Virus genome (UHGV): UHGV-0106067
Length of the DNA: 62,562 nucleotides
DNA from: a virus
Strand: one strand, 5' to 3'
Part shown: piece by piece, positions 13,293 to 37,291 of the stretch
Numbering within the stretch: position 1 is the stretch's first letter
Layout: each line of letters starts with the position of its first letter
Translations under genes and position numbers: made by a program
Notes under the pieces: model-generated
What the model was told of the DNA's origin: nothing
The model's database searches: none
Seen by the model: the letters and a program-made list of their open reading frames with translations, nothing else

Positions 13293-13296
13293 AAAC

Positions 13297-14545: not shown

Positions 14546-14550
14546 CAAAA

Positions 14551-15531: not shown

Positions 15532-15577
15532 ACAAAAATCACCGCAAGTTATATTTATTTCAAGCCAGAAACATCGC

Positions 15578-16891: not shown

Positions 16892-16961
16892 TTAACCCCA
16901 TCCCCGACCACATATCGGGGATTAAATTAAATATCTGGATTAATTAACCGGAGGATTTGTC

Positions 16962-17174: not shown

Positions 17175-17185
17175 AAGGAAATATC

Positions 17186-17467: not shown

Positions 17468-17487
17468 CCGGAATCAGGAGTTCCGCC

Positions 17488-17769
17488 ATGAACGCATACC
17501 TCACCTGCGACCGCATAGAGGAGCGTCGCTGGATTAATCAGCAAATTCAGGATGAAAAGGATAAATGGATTGATGATCGGGCGCAGGAGCTTATCAGCAT
17601 GTTCCCCGATAAACCATTGCTTATGAGCAGCCTTTTTTTACCCAAAGAAGCCCAACTGGCACTCACTGGCGAAAAAGCTGAAGAGGCGTACAACGATTAT
17701 ATCTCAGCGATCGCCTATGCTCGGGCGGAAGAAGAATGGGAGAGAAAATTCTCCCCCTGTCCTTTCTGA
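17488..17769 (+). CDS. hypothetical protein
   Basis: 93-aa ORF in early-left operon. Confidence 0.4.
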   Translation: MNAYLTCDRIEERRWINQQIQDEKDKWIDDRAQELISMFPDKPLLMSSLFLPKEAQLALTGEKAEEAYNDYISAIAYARAEEEWERKFSPCPF

Positions 17770-17785
17770 TTTTCAGGACCAAAAA

Positions 17786-18736
17786 ATGTTCGATATCGTT
17801 GAATTTGTTAAGCAGCAGGAGCGCTTTTTCTGCGAGGCATTAACTGAACCGACGCTGACATGGGCGAAGGAAAGTCAGTTTGCAATTCAGCAATTCCAGA
17901 AAAATGCCTTTCTGGCTGACACAGCACGGGCAAATCTGCCCAGCGCACAGAACGCTATCATCAATGTTGCCGCCATCGGCATAACCCTGAACCCGGCCAG
18001 CAAGCTGGCGTATCTGGTCCCACGAAAAAAGGCTGTATGCCTGGATATCAGTTATATGGGGCTTCTGCATCTGGCACAGGTCACAGGAGCCATTCAGTGG
18101 GGGCAATGCAAACTTGTTTACGAGAAGGACATTTACGAGTCCAACGGTATTGACTGCGCCCCCACGCACAAATACAACCCATTCGTAGACAGGGGCGCAC
18201 GCATTGGCGGTTATTGTGTCGTAAAAACATCCGAAGGCGACTATCTGACCGAAGAGATGAGCAACAGGGAAATCGAGGTCATCAGGGCGTGCAGCAAAGC
18301 CGGAAATAACGGAGGAAGTAGCCCGTGGGATAGTTTCCCCGATGAAATGGCCCGCAAAGCCATTGTTAAACGCGCCAGCAAATACTGGCCCCGTCGCGAT
18401 CGCCTGGATACAGCTATCGACTACCTGAACACTCAGGCCGGTGAAGGTATTATCCTGAATGCTGATCACATCCCTGAGCGCGACGTCACTCCCGCATCAG
18501 ATGAGATTATCAATGAGATCACTCAGGCAATCACCGAAATCAACAAGAAATGGGATGACCTTCTCCCCGTATGTTCCAAAACATTCCGTCGCACGATTGC
18601 ATCACATGAAGATCTCACGCAGGAAGAAGCCGTCAAAACGCTGGATTTTGTCAAAAAGAAAGCTGCCAGAAACAAGGCCACGGCGGAAGCGAAAGTTCAC
18701 GCCACCACGGAAAATAACAGCGAGGCCGTGTCATGA
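17786..18736 (+). CDS. recT: RecT-family single-strand annealing recombinase
   Basis: start placed at internal [11 protein letters not shown] with SD; paired with downstream exonuclease. Confidence 0.65.
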
Positions 18737-19431
18737 CACCAGAAATTATTCTCCAGCGAACTGGCGTGGATATTACCAGCCTCGACCAGGGCGATGATGG
18801 ATGGCACAAGCTGAGACTCGGTGTTATCACTGCTTCAGAAGTTCACAACGTCATAGCCAAACCACGTTCAGGCAGCAAATGGCCTGATACAAAAATGTCA
18901 TACTTCCACACCCTGCTGGCTGAAGTTTGTACTGGCGTGGCACCGGAAGTTAACGCTAAGTCGCTCGCATGGGGAAAGCAATACGAAGATGATGCCCGTG
19001 CCCTCTTCGAATTTATCGCGGATGTTACCGTCTCGGAAACGCCAATAATTTTTCGTGACGAAAGCATGCGCACCGCCTGCTCTCCCGACGGTTTATGCAG
19101 CGACGGTAACGGTCTTGAGCTTAAATGCCCCTTCACTTCCCGCGACTTCATGAAGTTCCGGCTTGGCGGCTTTGACGCTATCAAGCCTGCTTACATGGCC
19201 CAGGTGCAATTCAGCATGTGGGTTACAGACAAGGACGCCTGGTACTTCGCCAACTACGACCCACGTATGAAGCGTGAAGGCCTGCATTATGTCGTGGTCG
19301 AGCGGGATGAAAAGTACATGGCGAGTTTTGATGAGATGGTGCCGGAGTTCATCGACAAAATGGACGAAGCACTGGCGGAAATTGGTTTTGTATTTGGAGA
19401 ACAATGGGGGGGGTTAATAACTAATGGATGA
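18733..19431 (+). CDS. lambda-Exo/YqaJ-type exonuclease
   Basis: 232 aa; translationally coupled to recT. Confidence 0.65.
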
Positions 19432-20011
19432 TGTAATTTTTACTTACAATGAAGAATCAGCACTAACCGCCGGACAAGGTGGTTTTATTACCGAAACGGG
19501 TGCGCATATCATTAACATCACCGAAGCAGAACTCAAGCAATCAGAAAAAGGTGCCCGATTCATTGAGTTTTCTGGAGAATCCGACGACGGACGGAAAATC
19601 CAATATCTCAGTGTTTGTGTTCAGAAGAATGACGGCACTGAAAATAAATTTGGGGCGAGCATTATTCACGCCATGATGGGATGCACAGGAATTGGGCAGT
19701 TAACGCAACATATGGTTTCCGTCAGTAAATATGTTGCACCTGAGTTTCACGGAAAGAAAATCGGGTTAGTGCTCCAGAAAGTATTAACCACAAACAGAAA
19801 GACTGGCGCAGACAGTTACCAGATGGAAATCCGCATTCCATTCATTGCAGAAACAGGGCAGACACTGAAAGAAAAAGCTGAAGGAAAGAAACCAGAAACG
19901 GTAGCAAATATGGTTTCCACTCTCAAAGACAAAGACAATCGCAGCAAAAACGCAAACCCGAATCACACGGACGACCCGGGTTACTGGCAGTACGGTGGCG
20001 ATAACTTTTAA
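19424..20011 (+). CDS. hypothetical protein (possibly DUF669-like)
   Basis: 195-aa ORF overlapping exonuclease stop. Confidence 0.4.
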
Positions 20012-20085
20012 TTCACAAACAAAACCAGGCTTTAAATGCAGTGAACAACTGAAGCCTTAACACACCTCTACACGGAGATATTAAT

Positions 20086-20433
20086 ATGAACCAGCATCAA
20101 ACTGATGTTAATGTTTTCATTAACGACCTCGACGGCGGGGTATTTGTTAACAAACTTGGTGCGGTATTAAGTGAAGTTGCCTTTGGCGTAAACAGCACAA
20201 ACAAAAAAGGAAAGGTATGTGTTGAATTCGAATTATCTTCACTTGATGAAAATCGCGTATCAGTTTCCCATAAACTAAAATTCACACGCCCGACAATGCG
20301 TGGTAGTAAATCAGAAGAAGATACGACTAACACACCAATGTTTGTAAATAAAGGTGGTGAGCTTACTTTGTTCCAGAAAGACCAGGGACAGGTTTTTGAT
20401 AAACAGGGCCAACATGACGCTGTTTTACGCTGA
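20086..20433 (+). CDS. hypothetical protein
   Basis: 115-aa ORF. Confidence 0.4.
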   Translation: MNQHQTDVNVFINDLDGGVFVNKLGAVLSEVAFGVNSTNKKGKVCVEFELSSLDENRVSVSHKLKFTRPTMRGSKSEEDTTNTPMFVNKGGELTLFQKDQGQVFDKQGQHDAVLR

Positions 20434-20496
20434 ATAATCCCCGCCTTAAAACGCTCGCGCATTATCCCTAAATACATAAATTAAAGGTAAACATAC

Positions 20497-21318
20497 ATGT
20501 CTCAGTTAGATAGCAATGCCATTAAAGAAATTGTAAAACTCACCACTACTGCTTTTTCTGGTGAAAATTTGCCGCTTACGGAATGCCCTGTTGCGTTATT
20601 GCCGGACAATGTAAATATCGAAAGTCTGGAACAATTCATGACAGAACGTTTTCGTTTCCGTGGAGTCATGACCACAACCAGTATTGATGACTTTGTTGAA
20701 TACAGCAAAGGGTATGCCGATGAGTGCTCCCGCTGCTTCATTAACGCGGAAACGATGAAAGCAGTCACTGTGTTCAATATCGGCACTCTGGAGCAACCTG
20801 GACACGCTGACAACAAGGCACTGCTGGAACTGAAAGCCACATCACCATATCGCGCATTACGTGACGTGGACGGCAAAAAACAACTCCAGAAATCTCTCGC
20901 TGAATGGCTGGAAGACTGGGCCGACTTCCTCACAGCCTATGACAGCGACGGTAATGTGCTGGATATCAAACAGGCGATCTCTGCTGTCCGTCGTCTTACC
21001 ATCGACGCAAAACGCAGTGCTGAATATGAAGAGCAAAACTTCAGCGGTAGCCGCTCAGTCATGGAGTCCGTTGAGGCTAAAAGCAAAGAAATCATGCCTG
21101 CCACTTTCCGCTTTGAATGCATCCCATACGAGGGCCTGGGCAACAGGGAATTCACGCTGCGATTAAGCATTCTGACAAGCGAACAACCTGTTCTGGTGCT
21201 ACGTATCGTGCGTGTTGAAGCTGCGGAAGAAGAAATTGCCAAAGAGTTCCGTGACCTGCTGAAAGAGCGTTTCGAAGAAGAAGATATCTTAACCTTCATC
21301 GGCACGTTCTCAGTGTGA
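20497..21318 (+). CDS. hypothetical protein (DUF2303/YfdQ-like)
   Basis: 273-aa ORF. Confidence 0.45.
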   Translation: MSQLDSNAIKEIVKLTTTAFSGENLPLTECPVALLPDNVNIESLEQFMTERFRFRGVMTTTSIDDFVEYSKGYADECSRCFINAETMKAVTVFNIGTLEQPGHADNKALLELKATSPYRALRDVDGKKQLQKSLAEWLEDWADFLTAYDSDGNVLDIKQAISAVRRLTIDAKRSAEYEEQNFSGSRSVMESVEAKSKEIMPATFRFECIPYEGLGNREFTLRLSILTSEQPVLVLRIVRVEAAEEEIAKEFRDLLKERFEEEDILTFIGTFSV

Positions 21319-21394
21319 TGAAATCTGTGACAGGGACGTCACGACATATCGCTCATATTTCACGAGAAAATACACAGTTCCAGGAGGGTATACT

Positions 21395-21838
21395 ATGCAA
21401 TTTAAAGATTTACCAGAGGATATTCAGAAAATAGCTGCGGATACGCTTAAAGCCCATTTATCGGTGCTTGATTTAACAAAGGAACCAAAGGCGAATCTGG
21501 AAAATATATCCCGTAACGTGCGAAATGTTTTTGTCGGGCTGTATGCTTATGACAATGAAAAGCACGAGGAACATATTCAAAATGGTTGCATTAATAAATG
21601 TCAACAAAATATCAAACTTCCTGTTGCTGCTAAAACAGAGCAGAAAACAGATGTATTAGTATTCTGGAATACCGTTGAGGCTATCGCCAGGAGCACGATG
21701 TTGGAGTTTAACAACATCAATCATTCCGGGATCGACACTCATCAATCATCACATCGTGAGGGGTTTTCCATTCTTCTAACTCTGTTACAAGAGCAAGGCG
21801 AATATCCTCAGCCGACATCAAACGACACTGGGCAATAG
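21395..21838 (+). CDS. hypothetical protein
   Basis: 147-aa ORF with SD ccaggaggg. Confidence 0.4.
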   Translation: MQFKDLPEDIQKIAADTLKAHLSVLDLTKEPKANLENISRNVRNVFVGLYAYDNEKHEEHIQNGCINKCQQNIKLPVAAKTEQKTDVLVFWNTVEAIARSTMLEFNNINHSGIDTHQSSHREGFSILLTLLQEQGEYPQPTSNDTGQ

Positions 21839-21945
21839 TCTATTCACGTACGCTGCAACGTGAGGTCGTACCCCGGACACGGGTAAACATCCGGCAATTC
21901 CAGCTTACCACCTATTTAACCCCCTCCCCGTAACGAGACGAAGAA

Positions 21946-22824
21946 ATGAGCACTCATCATGTTGTGAGTTTTTCAGGCGGTCGGACATCGGCGTACCTCG
22001 TCCACCTTATGGAGCAACGAAGAAAAGCTGGTGAAAACGTTCATTACATACTCATGGATACGGGATGTGAACACCCGCTGACGTACCGGTTTATTCGGGA
22101 GGTTGTGAAGTTCTGGGATATTCCGCTAACCGTGTTGCAGGTCGATATAAATCCAGAGCTTGGGCAGCCAAATGGTTATACGGAATGGGAACCAAAGGAT
22201 ATTCAGACGCGAATGCCGGTGCTTAAACCGTTTATGGACATGGTAAAAAAATATGGCACGCCATACATCGGCGGCGCGTTCTGCACTGACAGATTAAAAC
22301 TCACCCCCTTCACAAAATACTGCGATGACCATTTCGGACAAGGGAACTACATCACGTGGCTGGGTATTCGTGCAGACGAACCCCGTAGGCTGAAACCGAA
22401 ACCGGGCGTCCGGTATCTTGCCGAACTGTCAGATTTTGATAAGTCGGATGTTATCCGGTGGTGGCGAAAACAACCTTTTGATTTGCAAATCCCGGAGCAC
22501 CTCGGGAACTGTGTTTTCTGCATCAAAAAGTCAACGCAAAAGCTGGGGCTTGCATGTAAAGACGAACCTGGTCTGATGCGGGTTTTTAATGAACTGGTTA
22601 CAGGCAAACACGTCAGGGATGGTCATCGCAGAACAGGTAAAGACGTTATGTACCGTGGTCACCTGACGCTTGACGGGATTGCCAGGATGTATGCCGACAG
22701 CGACTACAGCAATTTGTATCAAGCGATGGTGCTGGCCAAGCGGTTTGATACTGGTTCGTGTTCCGAATCATGTGAAATCTGGGGTGACCAATTGGAGTTG
22801 AAATTCGAAGAGGTAGTGGCATGA
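21946..22824 (+). CDS. PAPS-reductase-like PP-loop ATPase family protein
   Basis: N-terminal VVSFSGGRTSAY PP-loop-like motif; paired cysteines near C-terminus. Confidence 0.6.
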   Translation: MSTHHVVSFSGGRTSAYLVHLMEQRRKAGENVHYILMDTGCEHPLTYRFIREVVKFWDIPLTVLQVDINPELGQPNGYTEWEPKDIQTRMPVLKPFMDMVKKYGTPYIGGAFCTDRLKLTPFTKYCDDHFGQGNYITWLGIRADEPRRLKPKPGVRYLAELSDFDKSDVIRWWRKQPFDLQIPEHLGNCVFCIKKSTQKLGLACKDEPGLMRVFNELVTGKHVRDGHRRTGKDVMYRGHLTLDGIARMYADSDYSNLYQAMVLAKRFDTGSCSESCEIWGDQLELKFEEVVA

Positions 22825-23024
22825 CAATCGTAAAAACCCATACCGGCATTGTGATCACCAAAGACGGCCCGCAGGTAAAAAAACTTCACCAGACAGAGCG
22901 GATGTGGGTCGTCGGCAAAAACGAGTTTTACCACAAAGAAACCGGACGCCGCCACTTTGCAGAAAATACGCGCCGCAGACTGCTGATCGACACAATCAAG
23001 CCTGTCGAGGTGAAGCATGTTTAA
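22821..23024 (+). CDS. hypothetical protein
   Basis: 67-aa ORF coupled to upstream gene. Confidence 0.35.
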   Translation: MTIVKTHTGIVITKDGPQVKKLHQTERMWVVGKNEFYHKETGRRHFAENTRRRLLIDTIKPVEVKHV

Positions 23025-23256
23025 ACAGAACGAAAAATCTATCGCTCAAATTGCTGAGTATATCCCGCGTACGTGCCGGGGTATGCAGTTGCAAGAAGCC
23101 AAAGCGCGCCTGGAGAAAAAAATTGCGCTCTATATCGATGACGGCTGTGATGCTGCCGTTCTTAACGCGGCTTTCGCACCAGCTCTTAACTGTCATACGC
23201 GGGAATCTTTTTTTTCGTGCATCGCAGCGCAGATCCACAAAGGAGGCAACCAGTGA
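23017..23256 (+). CDS. hypothetical protein
   Basis: 79-aa ORF. Confidence 0.3.
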   Translation: MFKQNEKSIAQIAEYIPRTCRGMQLQEAKARLEKKIALYIDDGCDAAVLNAAFAPALNCHTRESFFSCIAAQIHKGGNQ

Positions 23257-23735
23257 GCAAGATTGACTATCAGGCACTGCGTGATGCGGCAGTAGCAATT
23301 GAAACAGTAGCAACGCCTCAGAAATTGCTGGCATTTCGTATGAAAGTCACACCTCAGGTTGTGCTGGCACTGCTGGATGAACGGGAAAGAAACCAGCAAT
23401 ACATCAAACGCCGCGACCATGAGAACGAGGATATTGCGCTAACGGTAGGGAAGCTGCGTGTTGAGCTTGAGGAAGCAAAATCAAAACTCAACGAGCAGCG
23501 TGAGTATTACGAAGGTGTTATCTCGGATGGGAGTAAGCGCATAGCAGAGTTAGAAAGTGATTCTCAGGAACAAAAGTTAGTTGAAGCAATCATTGTTGCG
23601 ATAGAAAACGAACAGGAACGTCTTTTTGATGAAGATTACCTAATGGATTCGAAAGAATGCATTGACGTAATTCGTGAAGAAGTAAAGCGATGGAATGATT
23701 CCCGCGCCGCTGGCATTCGCATCAAAGGAGAGTGA
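23253..23735 (+). CDS. hypothetical coiled-coil protein
   Basis: GTG start 6 nt after SD aggagg; overlaps upstream stop (GTGA). Confidence 0.4.
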   Translation: MSKIDYQALRDAAVAIETVATPQKLLAFRMKVTPQVVLALLDERERNQQYIKRRDHENEDIALTVGKLRVELEEAKSKLNEQREYYEGVISDGSKRIAELESDSQEQKLVEAIIVAIENEQERLFDEDYLMDSKECIDVIREEVKRWNDSRAAGIRIKGE

Positions 23736-23736
23736 G

Positions 23737-24492
23737 ATGATTCACTACCACGGTGGGCCTATTACTCCTGATACGTGCGCAATGAGAGCATGGAAAGGGC
23801 GACATGCGTTTATCAGTTTTGCGCATTCAGGCCAGATCAATCTCGCGGCTGAATACTGTCAGTCGTTCGCGCTGGACAACGGTGCATTCACCGCCTGGAA
23901 AGCAGCTGGCAAAAACAAAATCGACTGGAGCGATTACTACGAGTTTGTTGCTCGCTGGAAGAATCACCCAGGATTCGATTTTGCCATTATCCCGGATGTT
24001 ATTGATGGCGGAGAGGAGGAAAATGATGCGCTTCTGAATGAGTGGCCTCACGGAAAACTAGCTGGCGTTCCAGTGTGGCACATGAATGAAAGTGACGAGC
24101 GATTTATTCATTTGTGCAATGAGTTTCCGCGAGTGGCTATCGGTAGTTGTGGCGACTATGACGTAAAGCGCCCAACTCTTGCGGTAGCCAGAATGAAAGA
24201 CCTGATTCGTCACATTGTTGATGGGCATGGTCAGCCGGTTACGAAACTACATGGATTGCGCATGTTAAATCCGCTGATATTCACAAAATTACCCTTAGCC
24301 AGCGCAGATAGTACGAACGTCGCTCGAAACATCGGTATTGATAAAGCCTGGTCTGGGGCTTATGCACCTGCAAGTAAAGAGACACGCGCAGCATTAATGG
24401 TAGAACGGATTGAGGCACACAATAGCCCTGGTTCTCTTGCGTATTGTGAACAACGCGACCGCTTTGAAATGCAATTGCAACTAGCAGTTTAA
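23737..24492 (+). CDS. hypothetical protein
   Basis: 252 aa from MIHYHGGPITP; SD aaaggagag. Confidence 0.45.
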   Translation: MIHYHGGPITPDTCAMRAWKGRHAFISFAHSGQINLAAEYCQSFALDNGAFTAWKAAGKNKIDWSDYYEFVARWKNHPGFDFAIIPDVIDGGEEENDALLNEWPHGKLAGVPVWHMNESDERFIHLCNEFPRVAIGSCGDYDVKRPTLAVARMKDLIRHIVDGHGQPVTKLHGLRMLNPLIFTKLPLASADSTNVARNIGIDKAWSGAYAPASKETRAALMVERIEAHNSPGSLAYCEQRDRFEMQLQLAV

Positions 24493-24502
24493 GGACTAAC
24501 AA

Positions 24503-24901
24503 ATGACCACTATTACTAAAGAACGTATTGAATTGTTCATTAAAAATCAGCTTGAAAACGGGCTTACTCGTAGCGAACAAATGGAAGTGGCACGGATTGC
24601 TTTGGCATCGCTGGAAGCAGAACCTGTAAGCCAAACTTACAAGTTGAACGAGCTATCTGGCAACTCTCCGGTAACTCCGGATGGTTGGATAAGCTGTAGT
24701 GAGCGAATGCCGAACGATAAACAGTATGTTTGGTGTTGGGGTAAGTCTTACGGCTGGACTGAGTGCGATACCTTCGAAGGGTATTACGATTGGTCGAGAA
24801 ACAAATGGTGGGCAGTTACTGACAATGGGGAAGAACCGGCATCGAAAGTAACCCACTGGATGCCGCTACCAGAACCTCCGCAGGAGGTTAACCGTGGCTA
24901 A
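24503..24901 (+). CDS. DUF551-domain protein
   Basis: C-terminal W..THWMPLPEPP segment typical of DUF551. Confidence 0.55.
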   Translation: MTTITKERIELFIKNQLENGLTRSEQMEVARIALASLEAEPVSQTYKLNELSGNSPVTPDGWISCSERMPNDKQYVWCWGKSYGWTECDTFEGYYDWSRNKWWAVTDNGEEPASKVTHWMPLPEPPQEVNRG

Positions 24902-25175
24902 CCTGCAACTTGCCGTCAAAGGTGAATACTTCGATGCCATGATTCGCGGGGAGAAAACGGAAGAGTATCGCTTGTGTAATGACTACTGGAATAAGCGAAT
25001 CATGTTCCGGGAATATGACCGCCTGATTATCACAAAGGGATATCCGAAGCGCGACGATTCCAGCCGCAGAATTGATATTCCGTATGGCGGATATGAAATC
25101 AAGACAATCACACATCCGCACTTCGGTGATAAACCGGTAAAGGTATACGCGATAAAGGTAAATATTGATGGCTAA
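24894..25175 (+). CDS. ASCH-like small protein
   Basis: 93-aa ORF, overlaps upstream stop. Confidence 0.4.
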   Translation: MANLQLAVKGEYFDAMIRGEKTEEYRLCNDYWNKRIMFREYDRLIITKGYPKRDDSSRRIDIPYGGYEIKTITHPHFGDKPVKVYAIKVNIDG

Positions 25176-26075: not shown

Positions 26076-26750
26076 TCATATAGAGGCTGAATCTGATCTT
26101 TTTTGGTCACATCTGGCTTCCACCATTGCAGGCAGAGTGAAGGCGTAGACTAAAAACATTTCGGTAAAACTCAGTATCTGGCTTGCCTCAATTGGTGTGA
26201 ATACTTCATCTGTATGAACTGCTTTATTGGCATCTATTCGTACAATATGAGCCCATTCCTTCATCTGTTCAGTGATCAGGCCTTTTTTGTAAATCATCTG
26301 AATACGTTGCGACAGAGATTCTTTTCCTGCTTCATCGCCGAGCAGTTTTTTCGTTGAGATATCGAGGACTCTGCGACAAAGAATAACCACTGTGTCGTAC
26401 CGCCTCCTCTGTAAATCCTCTTTTGCCTCAACAAAAGTACGGTCTGCAACCGGGGGCGTATATTCTGGTGCGGTAATTTTTTTGACCGCAGGATAGATCT
26501 TGCGGAAACGGTACTGGCTATTTCCTGAAATCAGAATATCAAGGTCTTTTTTCTGGCTTTCCGCCATAGGGCCGTGATAGTGGTCTGATGGGATTTCAAC
26601 AATAGCAACACCTCCTTGATGACAACTTCTGCATACAAAAGCGACGTTAAAAAGAGGTGTTTTTTCAATTTGTTTTTCGGCAAATGCCTCAATAACAGCT
26701 CGCTCTTTTAAACAGTGCGGGCATGTAATGTCAAAGGAGACTAAACCCAT
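26076..26750 (-). CDS. zinc-ribbon + DUF4145 (HEPN-like) protein, candidate abortive-infection/defence effector
   Basis: N-terminal CPHC...CRSC; C-terminal SQRIQMIYKKGLITEQMKEWAHIVRIDANKAVH matches recalled DUF4145 signature (R-x2-GN-x-AAH); SD gagg 7 nt upstream of ATG at 26750. Confidence 0.5.
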   Translation of the reverse strand: MGLVSFDITCPHCLKERAVIEAFAEKQIEKTPLFNVAFVCRSCHQGGVAIVEIPSDHYHGPMAESQKKDLDILISGNSQYRFRKIYPAVKKITAPEYTPPVADRTFVEAKEDLQRRRYDTVVILCRRVLDISTKKLLGDEAGKESLSQRIQMIYKKGLITEQMKEWAHIVRIDANKAVHTDEVFTPIEASQILSFTEMFLVYAFTLPAMVEARCDQKRSDSASI

Positions 26751-27030
26751 GGATATTCCTCGCGAAATTAAAGAAATTAACGAAATCATTGAGGTTACTG
26801 ATCGCCCCGAGTTTACCCTCATGTGGCGCTATGAAACAGGAACCGACGAGCAAAAATACATCATGGTTGCAGCATTGGCTGTGATGGCGATAGAAAGGGA
26901 GCGGATGGAAAGGAACGTAATAGTTATTCCTGAGAGAAATGATTCACCGGATCTGAGATGGCAGGGGCCGGAGTGGATGTGGCAATCCGGTGATGATATT
27001 TCTTCTCTGGGGGAAGCGCCGCCAGAATGA
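26749..27030 (+). CDS. small acidic hypothetical protein, divergent from DUF4145 gene with overlapping start codons
   Basis: ATG at 26749 shares the palindromic CCATGG with minus-strand ATG at 26750; SD aaggag upstream; could be a shadow ORF. Confidence 0.25.
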   Translation: MDIPREIKEINEIIEVTDRPEFTLMWRYETGTDEQKYIMVAALAVMAIERERMERNVIVIPERNDSPDLRWQGPEWMWQSGDDISSLGEAPPE

Positions 27031-27277
27031 CGGCGCGGTAGTGAAGGTAATCAAACATTTATGGCCTGAATCCCGTTTTTTTCAATAACGGAAAGAAGCG
27101 CGCCGCGCCGGGCGGAAACAGAAACGATGGGAGGGTGCATGTAAGGCGTTGCAAGAACTGAATAAATACCGTGACTTGATCAACGAATTGTCAGAGTGAG
27201 CGAAGCGGGAATCCACGTCCTTTAGGGCGTGGATGATATCAGGCTGTTGAAATACATGTAGAAAAGGAGCGCATACT

Positions 27278-27445
27278 ATGACCGAAAAAGAGGTTTCTGA
27301 TTTGTTACAAAAAAGGCGCACAGCTTTGTATAATTTGCGAAAAAAACACGGATTCCCGGAACCAGTACTTACTCATCCGGCGCGATATAGTCGTCAGGCC
27401 GTTGAACAATGGCTTAAAGCCGGAGGAATTAACCGAGCTGTTTAG
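27278..27445 (+). CDS. AlpA-family excisionase / DNA-binding regulator
   Basis: 55-aa ORF MTEKEVSDLLQKRRTALYNLRKKHGFPEPVLTHPARYSRQAVEQWLKAGG with SD aaaggag; not in ORF track (<60 aa); convergent with integrase, overlapping its 3-prime end by 17 bp. Confidence 0.55.
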   Translation: MTEKEVSDLLQKRRTALYNLRKKHGFPEPVLTHPARYSRQAVEQWLKAGGINRAV

Positions 27446-28673
27446 CGTGCCAGAAAATTTTATCAGCATACAACTCATACGCATCTTTCTGTTCCGACAA
27501 CCAGTCGTGTTTATTATACACGGCCATAACTCCCCCAAGTTCATGCCCCAGCATTTTTTCAGTGACGTGGGGCATAATTCCTTCCCCAGATAAATTCGTT
27601 ACCAGAGAACGCCTAAAATCATGCGTTCTCCATTCAGGAATATCAATTTTCTCCCTTAACTTTTTCATGTACAAATTAGCCGACGAACGATCAATAGGTT
27701 TATCTATTTCCTGCCCGGGGAATAGCACATCAAAACCCGCATTAAGCAATCTCTCGATATAAGGTTTAACCTGAGTGAATACCGGACGCCGGATAATATT
27801 CCCCATTTTTGAATGCTCTTTTGGGGTTGTCCAGACCAGATCTTCCATGTTGAACTCACTGGCTGTCGCGAGACGTAGCTCAGAAAGTCTGGCCCCCCAT
27901 AGCAATAGCAATTGATGTAACACCTTGTTGGAAGTAACTACTTTTGAGTTCTCCAGCGCCAGCCAAATTTTTGCCAGTTCCGTATAGGTAAGTACACGAC
28001 TCCCTACATCTGGTTTTTTCCCAATATTCTTAACACTAAGCTTGAGTAATTCGCATGATGGGATTAACTGGCGGCTGATACACCAGTTAATAACTGAACG
28101 CAGTTGTAACAACAAAACACGAGCCTTTTTCTTGTTGAGGCTTTCTTGTTTGTCAAAGAAACGAGCCCATGCCGATACTGGGATACTGGCAACTGGCGAG
28201 CCTTCAAACTGTGTGTACATAGTGTTGTACACGACGGATCTGTAAAGCGTCTGTGTATTGGGTTTCAGATCAGTAACATACTTATCCCACCACTGATCCA
28301 GGCATTCTTTTAATGTCAGTTCGCCGTCACTGGGCGCAAAATAATTTTTAGGGTTAACTCCCTTCATGTACAATGCGCGCATCTCACCGACGATAACACG
28401 CGCGTCCTTCAGTGAAGTAGACGGATAGCGCCCGACAGTAAGACGTACTGGCTTACCATTCCAGCGATAACGGTACTGAAACGTGATAGTTCCTGCTGGA
28501 GTAATCCGCACACTTAACCCGTCACCATCGGTGATTTCAGCAGGGCCAGAGTAGGGTTTTCCGTAGAGGCCTCGTAGTTTGGTGTCGCTCAGTGCCAATG
28601 CTTTATATCCTGTACACAAGTTTATAATGTATTCTGTACTCAATATGTACGCATTAGCAAGTGAACAAAACAC
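27429..28673 (-). CDS. int: tyrosine recombinase / phage integrase (P4-like family)
   Basis: 414 aa; C-terminal catalytic region with HDFRRS...GH...Y arrangement; true start uncertain. Confidence 0.8.
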   Translation of the reverse strand: MFCSLANAYILSTEYIINLCTGYKALALSDTKLRGLYGKPYSGPAEITDGDGLSVRITPAGTITFQYRYRWNGKPVRLTVGRYPSTSLKDARVIVGEMRALYMKGVNPKNYFAPSDGELTLKECLDQWWDKYVTDLKPNTQTLYRSVVYNTMYTQFEGSPVASIPVSAWARFFDKQESLNKKKARVLLLQLRSVINWCISRQLIPSCELLKLSVKNIGKKPDVGSRVLTYTELAKIWLALENSKVVTSNKVLHQLLLLWGARLSELRLATASEFNMEDLVWTTPKEHSKMGNIIRRPVFTQVKPYIERLLNAGFDVLFPGQEIDKPIDRSSANLYMKKLREKIDIPEWRTHDFRRSLVTNLSGEGIMPHVTEKMLGHELGGVMAVYNKHDWLSEQKDAYELYADKIFWHAKQLG

Positions 28674-28939
28674 TTTTCAACGCAAAAGAAGATAATCAAC
28701 CATGAACAAAAACGAACTTACACCTTGATTTTAAAACCATAAAGACGGTATTATCAGTCATATGGTGAACAACCAAAATCAATACGCAACAATGTCCTCT
28801 TAGTTAAATGGATATAATGAATACAAGCATTAACTAATTGATTTAAATACAGAAAGCACCAAAATAATCGTCATATCCGTACCCATTTATGTACACATCC
28901 CGTTAAGCATGCCCCGCACTTCCGTACGGGGCATGTTCT
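28674..28939. other. AT-rich intergenic region beside int: candidate attP
   Basis: no ORF; 9-bp inverted repeat catgccccg/cggggcatg at its right edge. Confidence 0.3.
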
Positions 28940-31900
28940 TTACTCCACTCCCACTTTTTTGTTGTACTCGCGGTTAAACCGATCCACGGCAATTTTCATA
29001 TCCCGCTCAACCGATTTCACCATCGCCGACTGTTGCGCCAGACTGAGAGTACTGTCGGCGTAAATGGCATCACGCTGTTTACGCAAATCCTTCAGTCTCT
29101 TCCGGGTATCCTGCATAAGCCCGTTCATCAACAATTTTCCGTTGTTCTCGTCAATGAACGCCGTTCTTTCTGCACCGGTCAGACTCTTCAGCTCTGCGTG
29201 ATACTGCGCAACCTCTGTCATCCGGTCGTACATCTTCTGCTGGTCTGCATACGGCATCACCTCACCCGAAATTTTCCCCAGGAAGGGCACCTGCTGCTCC
29301 GGTATATCAATACCGTTCAGCGATTTCACCGCCGCATCTGTGGTTTTGGAAATGAAGCGCCCTGTCCCTCCGGAGATATAGTCAATCCAGAATTTCAGCG
29401 ATTCCGGTGTGATATCCACCGCGCCGGGACGATACTGGCTGCCACCTGAGAACGCATTCAGCCAGGATGCAAACGCCTTGTACGCCTCAGGCGTTGAACG
29501 TCTGCCCAGCTGGCTGTCCGGTTTCGGTGTGCCAAATGGCATGTTCTCCTGGTAAATCTGCGCCCCCATGAAGTTTTCATTCATGGCAAGGTTCGCAAAC
29601 GGACGCAGAATGGTCGGCGCTGCATTTTTCAGCAATGCCCCGGACAGTGTTTCCGACGTTTCACTGCCCACAGGACTGAATGCCCCCAGGATACCACCGA
29701 CAACATTACCGGCAGCACGTGAAGCAGTCAGGTCGCCCGCTGCCACACCTTCAGCAGTATGCCCGAGCAGGAAGAAAACGTTGTACCCGTAAGGCAGAGG
29801 AATACTCCAGTACTCTCCGGCCTTGCCCCCGAACACCGATTTCATAATGACGAGGTTACGCTCTTTCACATGAGACGGCACCTTGTCATACCAGTTAACC
29901 CCGTCATCATCCTCCCCCGCAACACTGCGGTTAAGCGAGCCAAGCAGATAACCCGCTCCCACAGCTGCAAGCGCGATTTTCTGCGGTACATTGAGATTCT
30001 TCCAGCGAAGGCGCTCCGGTAACGGCCCGTCGCCATTAAGATGTCCGAGCGTTCTCACCAGGTTTGCGGTCCCCTGAATGCTGGCGTTGGCAAACATATA
30101 CAGCGAGTTCATCAGCGCTCCCTGCTCACCACGACGGTTAAAGTTCACCGTCATGTTTTTGGCAAGAGATGCCGCCTGCTGGCGTGACAAACCGGCATCA
30201 CGGGCGTGTTTATAGGCAGAAAGACGCAGAGCGTTTTCAACCGCGCCGTTGGCATCCTCGACCAGGTTCAGGAACGAATGCCATGCACCGATACTCTGGC
30301 CTTTCCATCCTCCCTTCGCCAGCGATACAAGGCGATCCATTTCCTTCTGCTGGCCTTCAAGGTCACCCATGTTAAACCAGCCGGTTTTACCTCCATCCTC
30401 AACAAACTCTTTCCACACCTTCTGCCACTGCGCACCGTTGCCCGTGAGGGTTTTACCACGCAGACTGGCGTATACGGCAGACATGGCAGACCGGCTGTCT
30501 TTCACCACAGCCAGGGCGGATAAGTTATCCAGCCCTTTCAGTTTACCGTCGCTCCTTCCCTGCTCAGCCTTCAGGTTCATCACCGCCGTCTGCACGTCAC
30601 GGATGAAGTTACTGACCAGAAATTCCGGGTTATACGACGTGTTCACCGTTGCCAGGAAACGGTTAACTTTCCCCAGCGTACGGATTACGGCGTTACTGGT
30701 TTCCGGCCCCATGTTCTTCATCGCACGCATCAGGCGCGGGTCATGGAGTTTGATGTAGTAAGTTTTGCCGTCCTTTTTGGTGGTGAAGTAGCGATCCGCC
30801 ATCATTGCCATAGGCACCGGACGTTCAACAACTTCGCGACGGGTTTCGCCGGTTTCCGGATCAACACGCTCTGCAATCGCCCGCATGGTGTCCGGTTTGT
30901 CATCAGTGAATACCTGCCAGTAATCCTTATCGGGATTATCCTGCACCAGTTTCAGGAAGGCGTTACCCACTTCGTTTTTGCGATTGCGGATCAGCGATTC
31001 GCTCAAATCCTGTATCGCCTGAGTGGAAGGAGACTGTGCGCGGGATGCACGCCCCATGGCCTGCCTGCTTTCACGTCCGCCGATGGTGAAGCCCTTACCT
31101 GCACGGGGCAGTGACACCACACCGTCAACATCCTGACCTTTCAGGGGAACGTAGTAACGGTAGGCGTTCTGCCAGGCATCCACCACACCGCTCTCTTCCA
31201 GTCCGGCCTCACGGATAAGCTCACGGCGACGGGCCAGCATATCGTCAACAATCCCTGCCAGACGGTCATACTGTGCCTGTTTGCCACTGTTACGCACACG
31301 CTGCATGATTTCCGCCGCTTCCGCGTTGGTCATCCCCGAACCGCCGTCCGGCATTTTCGGGTTGATTTTCGCGATATGCGCGTTACGTTCCGGCGCGTGA
31401 CGGGCGTAGAGGTACTCATCCAGATCGGCCTGCGCAATTTTGTAGTCCGCCAGTAATTTAGCCAGTGGCTGAACGTAGCGCTCCTTCATCACGTTCAGGT
31501 CGTTTTCCGCCTTCCCGTGGAAGAGTTCTTCAGCCATATAGGCGTTATTGCTGTCATCTATTTTTCCGCCAGTTTTACGGATATTCTCCTGCACCGCCTT
31601 CAGCACCTGGAATTTATCCTGCATCTGGCGAACAAAACGGGATGCAATTGTCTCTTCCGGTGTCAGACTGCTGGTACGGGAGTAATACGGCCCCTTGCGA
31701 ATATCTTCAGGATAGAGTATTTTATCTACAGAGCCGCGATAAGAATGTTCCCCTTTGGGCAATTGAAGCCCTCTGTGCAGAAGGTTATCGCGGCTTAATT
31801 TTTTCTTCCGGTAAAGCGTTAATCCGGCTTTATCCAGACTATTTGCCTTATTCATTCCTCCTTCCGTACCGTAAACCGAAGCTACCTTGTTGATTTCCAG

Positions 31901-34900
31901 GCGCGACCGGACAGCCTTCATGTGTACCGCTGACACTACAGGATCACCATTTTTATCCATGGCATCAAGCAGCATCACAACCGCATTTCTTTCTGTCGCG
32001 GAACGGTAAATTGCATCCGGATCGTGCATCAGTTCCGGTAGTCTCTCGATAACATCCATCGGCACCACATGTTTCACTCCATTGGTGGCCTTACGCACAG
32101 TGTCGCGGGAGATAACCAGCGGCAAATCTGGTGCGCCAAGGTGACGCAATACCGGCGGCGTACGCCCGATGTTTACCGTTAAATCTGTGGTGCGCAGAGA
32201 CTTCATCATTCTGGCAAGGTCATCACGATAACGCTCGCCCTCACCTTCCGGCACTTTGAACGGATCAGTCTTACCGCTACGGGAGTACTGAGACGATGCG
32301 CCAGCGCCATCCTCACGCGGCGTGTAACCTTCCCGCACACGCTGGCCTAACGTGCGAATAGTTTCGCGAACAAGTCTGATATCGTTCAGCTCTGTCGGCT
32401 TCAGTAACCCCGTGCGACGCAGTACCCCTTTGACCAGGGCAACAACACGCTCCCACGCCGCCACAAATTTATTCGGCTGTTTCTCCGCCATATGTGCCAG
32501 AAATTCACCTGCCTGCACTTCCGGTGATTCCTTAGCATAAGACGCATCAACCTTACGCCAGGCTTCACGGATGGTGGCGTTATCACTGTCACGGGTTTTC
32601 AGCACGGTCTTAATAATCGTCTGATATTCCGCTGGCGTGACTACATGCTCCATTGCATGGTGAATAATCTCGTGACGTAACTTCTCGCGAACGGTCCGCC
32701 CATCAGGGATGTTATCCGCCACCAGGACAATTTCACGTTTATCCGGACGATAGAACGCGTGCACCTTGCCGTAACCGTCGAATGATTCACCCGCCAGTGC
32801 TTCAGCCTCTTTCTGTGACTTCACCACGCGGACCTTCAGGTCACTGTCCTTAATGCCACTAATCACGCCACGGGCAACAGCTTCAACCTGCGGGACCGGA
32901 CTGCCTTTGGCTTCCGCACTACGGTTAACATCCGAAATCAGATTGCCTTCAGGTGTGCGGGTCACGCCCTTACGGGAATAAAACGCAACTCCCTTGTCCG
33001 TCTCACGGGTTTTCAGTGTTCGGAACAAGTGATCGAATGCCTCACGAATACCGCCATCCAGTTCTGCATTCGTCGGATAAGCGTAGGTGTCCGGCTGTCC
33101 ATGGTCATCCGCCTTACGGATATTGACCAGATAATCATTCTCCACGCCAGCCATACGCGCTTTATCCTGAACATAACGCTCAAAGGCTCGCGCCGCCATT
33201 TCAACATCCGTTGACCAGTACGGTTTTGAACGAACGCCATCCAGGCGTTCAGAACGACGCAACATGTCACTGCTGTTAATGGCTTTCATCACGCCTTTAA
33301 ACGCGTCGTAAACCTCCTGACGTACCGGATATTCCGCATCAACATACCTGCCGTCTTTAAATACGCGCCCGGCACGCTGTGCTTCCGTCATATAGTCGCC
33401 ACCTGACGTGATCTTCCCGTCAGTGGAAACATCATAACGACCAAAATAATTATCCAGTGAATGGAACCATTCGTGGGCCAGCGCCCCCGGTCCGTTACCT
33501 TTTGTCAGGTTGATTGCCACCTCACCCGGCTCATAGTGTGCCGCCGCCTTACCCTTACCACGGGCACCAAAAGCAAGCCCAAGACGACCGTTCAGAGAAA
33601 GCGCTTTTGTCGGCACGTTCAGCACGTCAGCCAGGTCATGCAGCGAGTCATAAGCCCGGTTCAAATCAGCCTGACGACGCGGACTTTCCACATAATTACC
33701 AAACTGCACACCACAAAAACCAAACGCATCACTGAACTGCTCCGGCGAAACATCCCCCTTGCGGCGTTCTGGTCCGGTACGATCGCGGTTGGTGGCGTTA
33801 CGCTGCTCCTCACGCGAGACTTCACGCAGCGCCTTCACCTGATTAACCAGCTCATCACGATGTGTGCGCACATAATCATGTGCATCACGGGCAGACTCAA
33901 AACCGCCCTTCAGTTTCTGCCTGTTTTTGCCATAACCGATAAAAATGTCGCCACTGGCCTTATGCCGGTACACGTCAAAGGTTATTCTGTCATCAGCAGA
34001 GGTTGCTGGCGTTTCCCTTTCTCTGGAGCCTTGTTCATCGAAATATGCTTTCGCCTTTTTCAGTAACTCATCCCGGCTTTCCGAGAAAAAGAGGTCGCGC
34101 CCCTTGCTATCACGAAGCGAATACATCATTTGCGGCGGATCGTAACGTTTTCCCCCGACAAACGAATAAACACCGGACCTGACACGATAGCCGGATGCTT
34201 TATCAATCTGCAATGCAGAAAGCGTACGGAGCAGTTTCCAGGTATCCGACATGCTCCGTAACCCCGGCTTACTGTCCATCATATCAGCCAGTTTCGCTGC
34301 CGGAATTTTCCCCTCCAGCATACCGGCAGTAGCTTCGCGACCGCTTTTAACAATGCTGATCCATTTCTGCATGTTACGGCTTGTTCTGGTGGGAATTTCA
34401 CTGCGATACAACGCCATCATTGCCAGCGTGTCACTATCCACACCTTCTTTTTCCAGACGGGCATAATCCGGCTTTGGAAACAGTTTGCTCAGTGGTTGTG
34501 TCGCGTACTCCCCATCCTCCAGCGTTTTACCCATAGCTTCAGCAAGCTGCGCATAACGGTGTTTTGCCGCGCCCTTAATCTCCTCGCCAAAGTCTTCAAT
34601 TTTCGCACCACGCGCCTGCTGGTGAGTGCTCGGTTTATCTACCGGCACCGGCACCTCAGTATCCGGAACATCGGTTATGGTCTGGCGATTATCCCCGGTC
34701 TGTCTGCGCGCTTCTGCCTGCTGTGCCAGTTCCGGAAGGGAGTCACGAACCATACGAGGGAGTGATTCAGGCTGTGGCATATCAACCCCACGCTGACTTT
34801 CAGGTGCAGGAAGTCCTTCACGCATTGGTGCTGTGGCGTTCTGCTCATCCGGTGACGGCAGACCACGACGAACTGTTTCGCCCTCCAGTATTTCCCCCTG

Positions 34901-37291
34901 GCGACCAGCGGCATTTTCCGGTGCCTGCGCACGTCCTTTCTGGAAACTCTGGCCCTTCACCTCACCGGTTGTGGTAAAACGACCACCACGTCCGGCCTGA
35001 TTTTCATCCGGCGTACGCGCTACTTCTCCTGGTAACGGATATCCCTGTCCGGGATGAATATCGCCGGGAGCGGGAAGGCGTGGACGCTCAGTTAACTCCT
35101 GTGCTGTCGGACCGGCATCACCTTCAGCCATCTGGGAACGCACCAGTTCTTCCGCCGTCGGCGCGTTGCCACGGGCAAGACGGGCCTGCACTTCTGTATC
35201 ATCCCCCGTAAAACCACGGAATCGCGGGTCACGCATGAACGCGGGCTGTTCCATCGGATCAGCATCAGTAATACGCTCTCCGTCAGCCAGAGTGTTAATG
35301 GTCTCCGTTGCCACATCTTCAGAGAACGCAGGATTATCCATTTCAACGGCATACTGATTCTCGCCTTTCTTCACTACGGACGGTTTCAGGCCGGTGGCGC
35401 TGGCATTGCGGAAAACGTCGCTCCCCAGAGCACTTTTTTCATCCGTGAAATAACGGTTGTCCGGACGCACCTTTTCAATGCGTTCTGCTGGTCTGGACGC
35501 ACCACTCCCGTTAATTTCAATACGAACTTCATCCGGATCGCGGAACCGCACCGTCGGGTAAATACTCCCGTCGCCATCATCCGCATTTTCCGGCTGTGGC
35601 TGTGCCTCCGGTCTGGCCTCCTGCTGAGGGCGAAGCACATCACGGATAGCCTGTAACTGCTGCTCTTCAGTATCAGTACGCCCTTCCTTCAGGCTGAGTT
35701 TTCGGTATTCCTCAAGCAGTTCAGGGCGCGGCTTCGCCTTCAGCTCATCCATCACCGCCTGTCGCTTCGCCTGTTCATCCAGTTCATTTAACAGCTGGCT
35801 GGCGGCTTCCCGGCGATGAACGGCAGACGTGTCTCCCTCAGGTGCCATATCCGCATCAGCATACTGTTCCAGAAGTTGCTCGCGATTCATGCCCTGCATG
35901 GATTCGCGATGCTGTGCCACCGGATCAGCCGGTTCGGGTTGCGGGGCTGCTTCACCCTGCTGTACGACTTCAGCCTCACGCATGGCGGTTTCTTCTGCGG
36001 CCTGACGTTTTCCACGATATCCGGCAACCGCACCGAACGGTGCGCCCATCGCTGCACCAAGAGCGGCTCCTTCGATCGTTGCGTCAGCTACCCCCTCCCA
36101 TGGTGATACATCCATTCCGGCAGTCTCACGCAACGTCATATTTTCCTGGTAACGCGAATAGCCGCCCTGCGCCGCATTAATCGTCCCCTGTTCCGTGGCA
36201 TTTCTGACAATGCCGCTTTTAACGGTCTTCGCCGTGCCCCGCATCGCCAGATTAAACAACTGAGCATCGCCCAGTTTTGCCGCCATGGCATTCACAGCCA
36301 GCAATTCAGGATCGGTTGCCAGCTGCGCGCGCACCTCATCGGCAACACGCTCTTTTGCCAGATCCATTTTCTGGCGATCAGTAAGCTGTGCGTGCTGCGG
36401 ATCTGCATCAATTGACAAAAACGTCTGCTGAAATTTCGGGGACTTCGCCAGCTCAGAGTAATCCGCGTTAAGAACAGAGTCTGCTGCTGCCATTGCACTC
36501 TGCCCCTGTGCGCTGGCTGAGGAATGGGTGATCAGGCCTGCCTGGAATAAATCCGGCATTTTTTTATCGACAGCTTCTGCTGCCAGTGCGGTAGCTCTTT
36601 CCGGCTGCATCCCTGCCGCAATGTATTTTTTCTCCAGCCCGGCGGTCAGCACTTTTCGCAGAGTGACTTCACCCAGCTTTTTAGTCACACCGCCTGCAAC
36701 CATATCAGGTACAAGGGCACCAATCAGGTTTACGCCCTTCGCCACCCAGACCGCAGAATCATCATAGCCTTCAGTCATCGGTGTATTCAGCGCCCGCTGC
36801 GCCCCCGGCGACATCTTGCCAGTCAGCCATTCATCCGAGGCTTTAGCGCCGCCACTGACTGCCTTGCCTGTGACCTTCAGACCTTTACCGACAGTATCAG
36901 TAACCGCATTTTTTCCATCAGGCAGAGTGTCGATGACCTCATCCGCCCCCTTGCTGCCACCGACAAAAATATCCTGAACAGTTGCGACTCCCGGCAGCCC
37001 CATACGGCTGAACTCATTTAAAATACGCGCCCCTGTTTTTACCGGGCTCTGAATCATCGCATCACCGAGTCCACGGGCCATTTCCCCTGCCCCCCGGACA
37101 GACTGGGCGACACCTTTCCCCATCGTTGGTAATACATCACTCAGGCTGAACGATGTGCTGTGATCAACAGCGTTCTCCGGGTTGTTGAAAAAATCCTGCC
37201 AGTAATTTTCGCCCGGCTGCTTAATGTTCAGGCTGCTGCGGTTCCGGTTACCCAATTGTGCTTCAGGGCGCTGTTCATCTGAATAAGCCAT
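28940..37291 (-). CDS. giant polyvalent virion/ejection protein (2783 aa) with two HExxH zincin-like motifs
   Basis: single uninterrupted ORF; ALAHEWFHSLDNYFGRY and LRHEIIHHAMEH motifs; Pro/Glu-rich low-complexity linker; last and largest gene of the structural block. Confidence 0.65.
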   Translation of the reverse strand: MAYSDEQRPEAQLGNRNRSSLNIKQPGENYWQDFFNNPENAVDHSTSFSLSDVLPTMGKGVAQSVRGAGEMARGLGDAMIQSPVKTGARILNEFSRMGLPGVATVQDIFVGGSKGADEVIDTLPDGKNAVTDTVGKGLKVTGKAVSGGAKASDEWLTGKMSPGAQRALNTPMTEGYDDSAVWVAKGVNLIGALVPDMVAGGVTKKLGEVTLRKVLTAGLEKKYIAAGMQPERATALAAEAVDKKMPDLFQAGLITHSSASAQGQSAMAAADSVLNADYSELAKSPKFQQTFLSIDADPQHAQLTDRQKMDLAKERVADEVRAQLATDPELLAVNAMAAKLGDAQLFNLAMRGTAKTVKSGIVRNATEQGTINAAQGGYSRYQENMTLRETAGMDVSPWEGVADATIEGAALGAAMGAPFGAVAGYRGKRQAAEETAMREAEVVQQGEAAPQPEPADPVAQHRESMQGMNREQLLEQYADADMAPEGDTSAVHRREAASQLLNELDEQAKRQAVMDELKAKPRPELLEEYRKLSLKEGRTDTEEQQLQAIRDVLRPQQEARPEAQPQPENADDGDGSIYPTVRFRDPDEVRIEINGSGASRPAERIEKVRPDNRYFTDEKSALGSDVFRNASATGLKPSVVKKGENQYAVEMDNPAFSEDVATETINTLADGERITDADPMEQPAFMRDPRFRGFTGDDTEVQARLARGNAPTAEELVRSQMAEGDAGPTAQELTERPRLPAPGDIHPGQGYPLPGEVARTPDENQAGRGGRFTTTGEVKGQSFQKGRAQAPENAAGRQGEILEGETVRRGLPSPDEQNATAPMREGLPAPESQRGVDMPQPESLPRMVRDSLPELAQQAEARRQTGDNRQTITDVPDTEVPVPVDKPSTHQQARGAKIEDFGEEIKGAAKHRYAQLAEAMGKTLEDGEYATQPLSKLFPKPDYARLEKEGVDSDTLAMMALYRSEIPTRTSRNMQKWISIVKSGREATAGMLEGKIPAAKLADMMDSKPGLRSMSDTWKLLRTLSALQIDKASGYRVRSGVYSFVGGKRYDPPQMMYSLRDSKGRDLFFSESRDELLKKAKAYFDEQGSRERETPATSADDRITFDVYRHKASGDIFIGYGKNRQKLKGGFESARDAHDYVRTHRDELVNQVKALREVSREEQRNATNRDRTGPERRKGDVSPEQFSDAFGFCGVQFGNYVESPRRQADLNRAYDSLHDLADVLNVPTKALSLNGRLGLAFGARGKGKAAAHYEPGEVAINLTKGNGPGALAHEWFHSLDNYFGRYDVSTDGKITSGGDYMTEAQRAGRVFKDGRYVDAEYPVRQEVYDAFKGVMKAINSSDMLRRSERLDGVRSKPYWSTDVEMAARAFERYVQDKARMAGVENDYLVNIRKADDHGQPDTYAYPTNAELDGGIREAFDHLFRTLKTRETDKGVAFYSRKGVTRTPEGNLISDVNRSAEAKGSPVPQVEAVARGVISGIKDSDLKVRVVKSQKEAEALAGESFDGYGKVHAFYRPDKREIVLVADNIPDGRTVREKLRHEIIHHAMEHVVTPAEYQTIIKTVLKTRDSDNATIREAWRKVDASYAKESPEVQAGEFLAHMAEKQPNKFVAAWERVVALVKGVLRRTGLLKPTELNDIRLVRETIRTLGQRVREGYTPREDGAGASSQYSRSGKTDPFKVPEGEGERYRDDLARMMKSLRTTDLTVNIGRTPPVLRHLGAPDLPLVISRDTVRKATNGVKHVVPMDVIERLPELMHDPDAIYRSATERNAVVMLLDAMDKNGDPVVSAVHMKAVRSRLEINKVASVYGTEGGMNKANSLDKAGLTLYRKKKLSRDNLLHRGLQLPKGEHSYRGSVDKILYPEDIRKGPYYSRTSSLTPEETIASRFVRQMQDKFQVLKAVQENIRKTGGKIDDSNNAYMAEELFHGKAENDLNVMKERYVQPLAKLLADYKIAQADLDEYLYARHAPERNAHIAKINPKMPDGGSGMTNAEAAEIMQRVRNSGKQAQYDRLAGIVDDMLARRRELIREAGLEESGVVDAWQNAYRYYVPLKGQDVDGVVSLPRAGKGFTIGGRESRQAMGRASRAQSPSTQAIQDLSESLIRNRKNEVGNAFLKLVQDNPDKDYWQVFTDDKPDTMRAIAERVDPETGETRREVVERPVPMAMMADRYFTTKKDGKTYYIKLHDPRLMRAMKNMGPETSNAVIRTLGKVNRFLATVNTSYNPEFLVSNFIRDVQTAVMNLKAEQGRSDGKLKGLDNLSALAVVKDSRSAMSAVYASLRGKTLTGNGAQWQKVWKEFVEDGGKTGWFNMGDLEGQQKEMDRLVSLAKGGWKGQSIGAWHSFLNLVEDANGAVENALRLSAYKHARDAGLSRQQAASLAKNMTVNFNRRGEQGALMNSLYMFANASIQGTANLVRTLGHLNGDGPLPERLRWKNLNVPQKIALAAVGAGYLLGSLNRSVAGEDDDGVNWYDKVPSHVKERNLVIMKSVFGGKAGEYWSIPLPYGYNVFFLLGHTAEGVAAGDLTASRAAGNVVGGILGAFSPVGSETSETLSGALLKNAAPTILRPFANLAMNENFMGAQIYQENMPFGTPKPDSQLGRRSTPEAYKAFASWLNAFSGGSQYRPGAVDITPESLKFWIDYISGGTGRFISKTTDAAVKSLNGIDIPEQQVPFLGKISGEVMPYADQQKMYDRMTEVAQYHAELKSLTGAERTAFIDENNGKLLMNGLMQDTRKRLKDLRKQRDAIYADSTLSLAQQSAMVKSVERDMKIAVDRFNREYNKKVGVE

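Follow-up and report, generated by a model that had tools for sequence, protein, structure and literature searches.

The integrase gene, the small gene that converges on it and the AT-rich gap beside them, all within the 62,562 nt of phage DNA that we analysed (the window), are as a whole very probably best explained as the integration and excision module of a short-tailed lambdoid phage of the Φ24B type. This module is already known and has been characterised experimentally in Φ24B, so that in itself it is an ordinary feature. In a megablast search 242 phage records, mostly of Stx-converting phages, matched the region with 95-99% identity. The gene anatomy, the identity with Φ24B, the crossover core and the prophage junctions are established here. 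The int promoter and start codon, independence of CI, the requirement for Xis in excision, the size of attP and independence of IHF are taken over from experiments on Φ24B and would apply here by analogy. What is new is comparative only and amounts to two modest hypotheses, one on the arm-type sites of the integrase and one on the displacement of the promoter of the host gene argW.

The maximal int ORF occupies 27429..28673 on the minus strand and would encode 414 aa from a GTG at 28673. It has the same length as the 1245 bp int ORF predicted in silico for Φ24B, which could not be expressed; active Int was obtained there with a TTG as start codon (Fogg et al., 2011; PMC3064807). As the GTG start has been discredited experimentally in this near-identical gene, we dropped it in favour of the TTG at 28598. 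By analogy with Φ24B, int most likely starts there and encodes 389 aa (27429..28598, minus strand), and the part of the ORF upstream to the GTG is probably not translated. The protein read from the TTG begins MALSDTK, with AGGA about 10 nt upstream of the start codon, and is identical to Φ24B Int at 379 of 389 positions (97%) in an ungapped alignment. It matches PHROG 1 (integrase, 8e-69), the Pfam family Phage_integrase (PF00589; 63.4 bits against a cut-off of 27.1, residues 227-389 of the 414 aa form) and, in its N-terminal arm-binding domain, Arm-DNA-bind_3 (PF13356, 62.6 bits). The catalytic residues, which were read off the sequence with no structural alignment, are R237 (WGARLSE), H326 and R329 (THDFRRS), H352 (MLGHE) and Y361 (AVYNK).

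The initial annotation had described a 55 aa ORF converging on int with a 17 bp overlap and had proposed that it encodes the directionality factor. Both points are borne out. The ORF lies at 27278..27445 on the plus strand and shares 27429..27445 with int. The overlap is also 17 bp in P27 and in the Φ24B record, where int occupies 236..1405 and xis 1389..1571 on the opposite strand. A Shine-Dalgarno sequence, AAGGAG, is found at 27264..27269, 8 nt before the ATG. At least 104 phage records contain a copy with 100% identity, and homologues with 35-61% identity occur in phages of Hafnia, Klebsiella, Proteus, Cronobacter and Salmonella. In all four of the distant relatives that were inspected in full (mEp234, SEN34, Hafnia yong2 and Proteus Brookers) the xis homologue overlaps the 3' end of the integrase gene. 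The ribosome-binding site, the identical copies, the homologues and the conserved overlap show that this small ORF is a real gene and not a chance reading frame. Its product matches PHROG 66 (excisionase and transcriptional regulator), and 52 of its 55 residues are identical to residues 6-60 of the 60 aa Xis of Φ24B. In that phage the small convergent ORF supplies the excisionase function: Int alone integrates but cannot excise, and Xis is required for excision (PMC3064807).

The label 'AlpA-like', also given to this ORF, is looser. The best Pfam match of its product is HTH_17, which covers residues 1-48 and is just over threshold (27.8 bits, cut-off 27), and the Pfam search gave no match to Phage_AlpA (PF05930) at E <= 0.1. 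Matches to Phage_AlpA appear only below threshold in relatives of 48% and 35% identity (17.8 and 15.1 bits, cut-off 21). A search of the PDB sequences with the 55 aa protein returned chance matches only (E > 1), and a search of NCBIfam returned nothing useful. We set aside a single-sequence AlphaFold2 model of the protein, which was of low confidence (pLDDT 74, pTM 0.42) and had the wrong topology, one long helix and no helix-turn-helix. If the label were taken literally, the protein would be a transcriptional activator with an indirect effect on excision, through induction of int in the way that AlpA induces intA of prophage CP4-57, and not an architectural excisionase acting at the att sites. 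The same two relatives are annotated as AlpA family regulatory proteins, and HHpred tied Φ24B Xis to PF05930 (PMC3064807). However, when Φ24B Int was expressed from an arabinose promoter there was integration without excision, and excision followed when Xis was added on the same construct (PMC3064807). Xis thus acts beyond int transcription. With this result, and with the window protein matching HTH_17 and not Phage_AlpA, we regard the activator reading as improbable and treat the protein as Xis.

The window xis differs from its relatives at the 5' end. An in-frame deletion of 15 bp (ATGGAA[A/G]TCAACTTA), located around 27263..27280, has removed the first five codons (MEINL or MEVNL), and these 15 bp are present in Φ24B, in P27 and in all 24 of the displayed relatives from phages and E. 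coli. The ORF is thereby reduced from 60 to 55 aa, perhaps the reason why an ORF track with a 60 aa limit missed it. The loss of the annotated start codon and five residues, seen in none of the 24 displayed relatives, could mean that the ORF is a truncated, inactive remnant and that the phage is impaired in excision. This is unlikely: after the deletion the second ATG sits exactly where the first was, 8 nt from AAGGAG, the Hafnia homologue begins at the same position as the 55 aa form, and the HTH_17 match lies wholly within the short form. Full activity of the window Xis is nevertheless only assumed, because the five N-terminal residues of every displayed relative are absent from it.

The strand layout agrees with the earlier description of int as lying on the late-gene strand, opposite to the early-left operon. 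int shares the minus strand with the portal gene, NinG and Q, and the plus strand carries cI (12321..13034) and RecT (17717..18736), with xis as the last gene of the early-left block. Since int and xis are on opposite strands, they are not co-transcribed from pL, as had also been claimed. In Φ24B, int is transcribed from a promoter of its own, does not respond to CI and is active in lysogens (PMC3064807; PMC3430580); the gene is inverted relative to that of lambda and was unaffected by overexpression of CI (PMC3064807). 5'-RACE placed the Φ24B int transcription start '46 bp downstream of the expected start codon' of the 1245 bp ORF (PMC3064807). Transferred to the window, this would put the start near 28627 and the promoter region, pInt, at 28627..28660 on the minus strand, where TTGCTA (28660..28655) and CAGAAT (28636..28631) are candidate -35 and -10 hexamers read from the minus-strand sequence. 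With a promoter of its own on the late-gene strand, int would stand outside the CI/pL circuit and could be expressed in lysogens.

Upstream of xis the early-left block contains a minus-strand gene, 26076..26822, which encodes a DUF4145 protein (PHROG 1305, 'DNA binding protein'). The 5' ends of this gene and of the orf at 26728..27030, just upstream of xis, abut or overlap, and the Φ24B genes differ there. Because the DUF4145 gene interrupts the plus-strand operon upstream of xis, transcription of xis from pL in this phage is only presumed, from Φ24B. A hairpin at 27211..27234 on the plus strand, 44 nt upstream of the xis ATG, folds at -20.6 kcal/mol (z -2.6) and has no U tract. A search of Rfam over 26900..29200 gave nothing at the gathering score; the best match, HgcC (26 bits against 50), overlaps this hairpin and is probably due to chance. 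A search for a terminator of int on the minus strand, downstream of 27429, gave no convincing candidate: the scan match at 27109..27097 folds no better than shuffled sequences (z +1.2), and the hairpin at 27211..27234 lacks the U tract.

The gap beside int is AT-rich, as the initial annotation had stated, but its length depends on the int start. Measured from the maximal ORF it is 266 bp (28674..28939, 35.3% GC against 49.5% for the window). This figure rests on the GTG start discredited for Φ24B, so we take the gap to be 341 bp (28599..28939), with a GC content of 34.6%, a value within the bottom 1.2% for windows of the same size. The suggestion that attP lies in this gap holds for the crossover. 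We defined the core by aligning the window with K-12 argW and with both junctions of the prophage VT2phi_272, and the sole block common to all of these is TGTCCTCTTAGTTAAATGGATATAA at 28793..28817 on the plus strand. Its last 24 nt (28794..28817) are nt 1-24 of argW, the gene for tRNA-Arg(CCU). The two VT2phi_272 junctions are clean P-O-B' and B-O-P' recombinants. The VT2phi_272 record annotates attL, attR and a tRNA-Arg at the ends of the match, the LC6160xx records annotate a 24 nt 'duplication due to insertion' at the core, and many prophage records cease to match at window position 28820. The gap sequence is carried by 230 of 5426 complete E. coli genomes; it is split in all 230, with no match crossing the core, and among the E. 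coli matches listed every int-side arm ends at query position 258-261 under a tRNA-Arg.

If the Φ24B results are transferred, a working attP may extend past the gap. The smallest Φ24B fragment that recombines, attP427, maps to 28607..29033 through primers that match the window exactly (PMC7581858, supplementary table 2) and so runs into the giant gene on the right. Of the ten attP primers published for Φ24B, nine have exact matches in the window and the tenth, attP140 F, has two mismatches. The published Φ24B attB primers flank argW in K-12, from which it follows that the 'primary attB' of Φ24B is argW; the name argW is absent from both Φ24B papers (PMC3064807, PMC7581858). The Hafnia phage yong2 has the same argW 5' core in its attP. 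In E. coli K-12, argW (L007, 710..784) is targeted at both ends by different elements. It is a well-known insertion site of Stx phages.

A match (AATCAATTAGTTA) to the IHF consensus WATCAANNNNTTR lies at 28831..28843 on the minus strand, 14 nt right of the core. The window contains five such matches where 2.65 are expected, which is weak alone, and IHF was reported not to be required for Φ24B integration (PMC7581858); we mention the site as a remark only.

The most conspicuous symmetric element in the gap is a 9 bp inverted repeat that had been noted earlier as part of the likely attP. It exists, as CATGCCCCG and CGGGGCATG within 12 nt arms at 28908..28935, and it forms a stable hairpin (28906..28937) with predicted folding energies of -21 kcal/mol on the plus strand and -25 kcal/mol on the minus strand (z about -5.4; none of 200 shuffled sequences was as stable). 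Its prominence would make it a candidate for the recombination site or for a core-type Int binding site, but we give this reading next to no credence. The repeat is some 90 nt away from the core, on its right, remains wholly on the phage side at both prophage junctions and is not duplicated, so that the junction alignment rules it out as the crossover site. In the four-phage alignment it is not conserved in SEN34, mEp234 or Hafnia yong2. It starts 3 nt past the stop codon (28940..28942) of a 2783 aa gene and is followed by TTCTTTAC on the plus strand. We therefore read the hairpin as lying at the end of a transcription unit and not as a part of the crossover; it is a putative terminator, although a terminator scan did not call it. 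The 2783 aa gene (28940..37291, minus strand) encodes a polyvalent protein with LPD38, LPD5, LPD1 and MuF_C domains and is the last late gene before attP.

Comparison of related phages points to candidate sites for binding by the N-terminal domain of Int. Five motifs centred on GTAC are found around the core, all on the plus strand: P1, CTGTACACAA (28610..28619); P2, CTGTACTCAA (28634..28643); P3, ATGTACGCAT (28645..28654); P'1, CCGTACCCAT (28877..28886); and P'2, ATGTACACAT (28889..28898), 12 nt from P'1. The motif TGTACNCA has 10 matches in the window, of which four fall in the 341 bp gap, all four on the plus strand. In the four-phage alignment the five motifs are invariant, against a mean column identity of 65% in the DNA around them. 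Counted from the int start, they lie at offsets (about +12, +36, +47, +279 and +291) that match in seven of seven phages from six host genera, namely the window phage, P27, mEp234, SEN34, Hafnia yong2, Proteus Brookers and Cronobacter ENT39118, a set in which Xis is 35-100% identical to that of the window and at least two different cores are used. From this conservation we infer that the five kGTACnCA motifs, three in the P arm overlapping pInt and two in the P' arm, are candidate arm-type sites of Int.

Published deletions of the Φ24B attP can be set beside this proposal. Recombination was found with attP427 but not with attP350 (Mohaisen et al., 2020; PMC7581858), and the same paper describes the sequences supporting binding of the Φ24B integrase as still undefined. 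Mapped onto the window, attP350 corresponds to 28639..28988, so that on the left it lacks precisely P1 and the P2 GTAC. The result agrees with a need for P1 and P2 but is not proof of it, as there is a further difference of 45 bp between the two constructs on the right. The five conserved motifs and their fit with the deletion series make this a concrete, testable hypothesis. P1 to P3 span about -27 to +18 of the transferred int transcription start, a position that suggests that Int may regulate its own expression.

The position of the core has a consequence for the host gene. As the core is the 5' end of argW, in a lysogen the intact argW would lie downstream of P-arm DNA and would have lost its native promoter. 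A consensus scan found a promoter-like element, TTGATT-18-TATTAT, at 28725..28754 on the plus strand (9/12), reading toward the core and argW, and the argW-type Hafnia phage has TTGATG-18-TAACAT at the aligned position. It is a speculative suggestion from the consensus match that this element could be a replacement promoter for argW in lysogens. One might extend this to a dual control in the P arm, in which Int bound at P1 to P3 would repress the CI-independent pInt, the rightward promoter at 28725..28754 would keep argW on, and the hairpin beside the giant gene would block antisense transcription from the orphan argW promoter into the late genes; we offer this combined scheme tentatively and think it more doubtful than not.

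The module would then work as follows. A promoter within the P arm of attP would drive int, which is read away from attP on the strand of the late genes, and the integrase would recombine the 24-25 bp core (28793..28817) with the first 24 nt of argW in the host, which have the same sequence. The prophage would come to lie upstream of an intact argW, and the far junction would hold a 24 nt argW stub together with the native argW promoter, which would drive the stub into the P' arm. Xis, a 55 aa DNA-binding protein probably of the winged-helix type, would be made only after induction and would turn Int toward excision.

The placing of Int outside repressor control is the published explanation for superinfection and multiple lysogeny by Stx phages of the Φ24B type, which aid the spread of toxin genes. 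The window contains no stx operon and no tRNA genes. Downstream of Q (6991..7521, minus strand), in the slot for tRNA genes and stxAB in Stx phages, are an N6_Mtase gene (4366..6327) and a type I Methylase_S specificity gene (3212..4306), after which comes an esterase gene of the DUF1737/SASA kind (628..2601). In its early and replication region (1..25000) the window is most similar to the ECOR13 phage PhiR12_3 (98.4% identity over 77%), and the int-attP module is closest to phi345/346/349 and to Stx phages of the PA2 type. As these two parts are closest to different phages, the genome is a mosaic. The presence of the same module in a phage without stx shows the cassette moving among lambdoid phages by mosaic exchange.

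Among known systems the window module is closest to that of Φ24B (vB_EcoP_24B, HM208303), with which it shares Int (97%), Xis (52 of 55 residues), the 24 bp core, both arms of attP and the use of argW as primary attB. The modules of Stx2 phage 86, P27, PA2, VT2phi_272 and ArgO145 also belong with these closest systems. Unlike its Φ24B-type relatives, the window phage has an xis without the first five codons and is a mosaic with neither stx nor tRNA genes, and its early-left region is different and includes the minus-strand DUF4145 gene.

Lambda transcribes int and xis together, leftward toward attP, from pL or pI, and has retroregulation by sib. The window module resembles that of lambda in having a tyrosine integrase with an arm-binding domain, a small directionality factor probably of the winged-helix type and a complex attP in which arm sites flank the core, and in lying between the late genes and the early-left operon. 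It differs in that int is inverted: the gene reads away from attP from a promoter in the P arm and converges on xis, so that the lambda-type int-xis operon is not found here, the two genes being on opposite strands with the 5' end of int facing attP. The identity block is also longer, 24-25 bp against 15 bp in lambda, and the reported dispensability of IHF in Φ24B (PMC7581858) is a further difference.

AlpA of CP4-57 and TorI of KplE1/CPS-53 are small helix-turn-helix proteins, as the window Xis probably is too, and are likewise encoded beside a P4-like integrase. TorI was the modelling template for Φ24B Xis (PMC3064807), but the Pfam and PDB searches gave no significant direct match between either protein and the window Xis. 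CPS-53 also uses argW, but it is annotated from nt 61 of the 75 nt gene and thus at the 3' end, whereas the window module uses the 5' 24 nt.

Finally, the phages of the sbcB type (mEp234, phage 2851 and Sf101), SEN34, Hafnia yong2, Proteus Brookers and Cronobacter ENT39118 have the same convergent, overlapping xis and int, with an attP beside the 5' end of int (annotated there in mEp234) and the five GTAC motifs at the same offsets, although their Xis proteins are only 35-61% identical to that of the window. The overlap is 20 bp in mEp234 and SEN34. The core differs from that of the window in the sbcB-type phages and SEN34, whereas Hafnia yong2 shares the argW core. As the layout is kept in mEp234, SEN34, Hafnia yong2 and Proteus Brookers, it is a conserved type of module and no accident of this genome.
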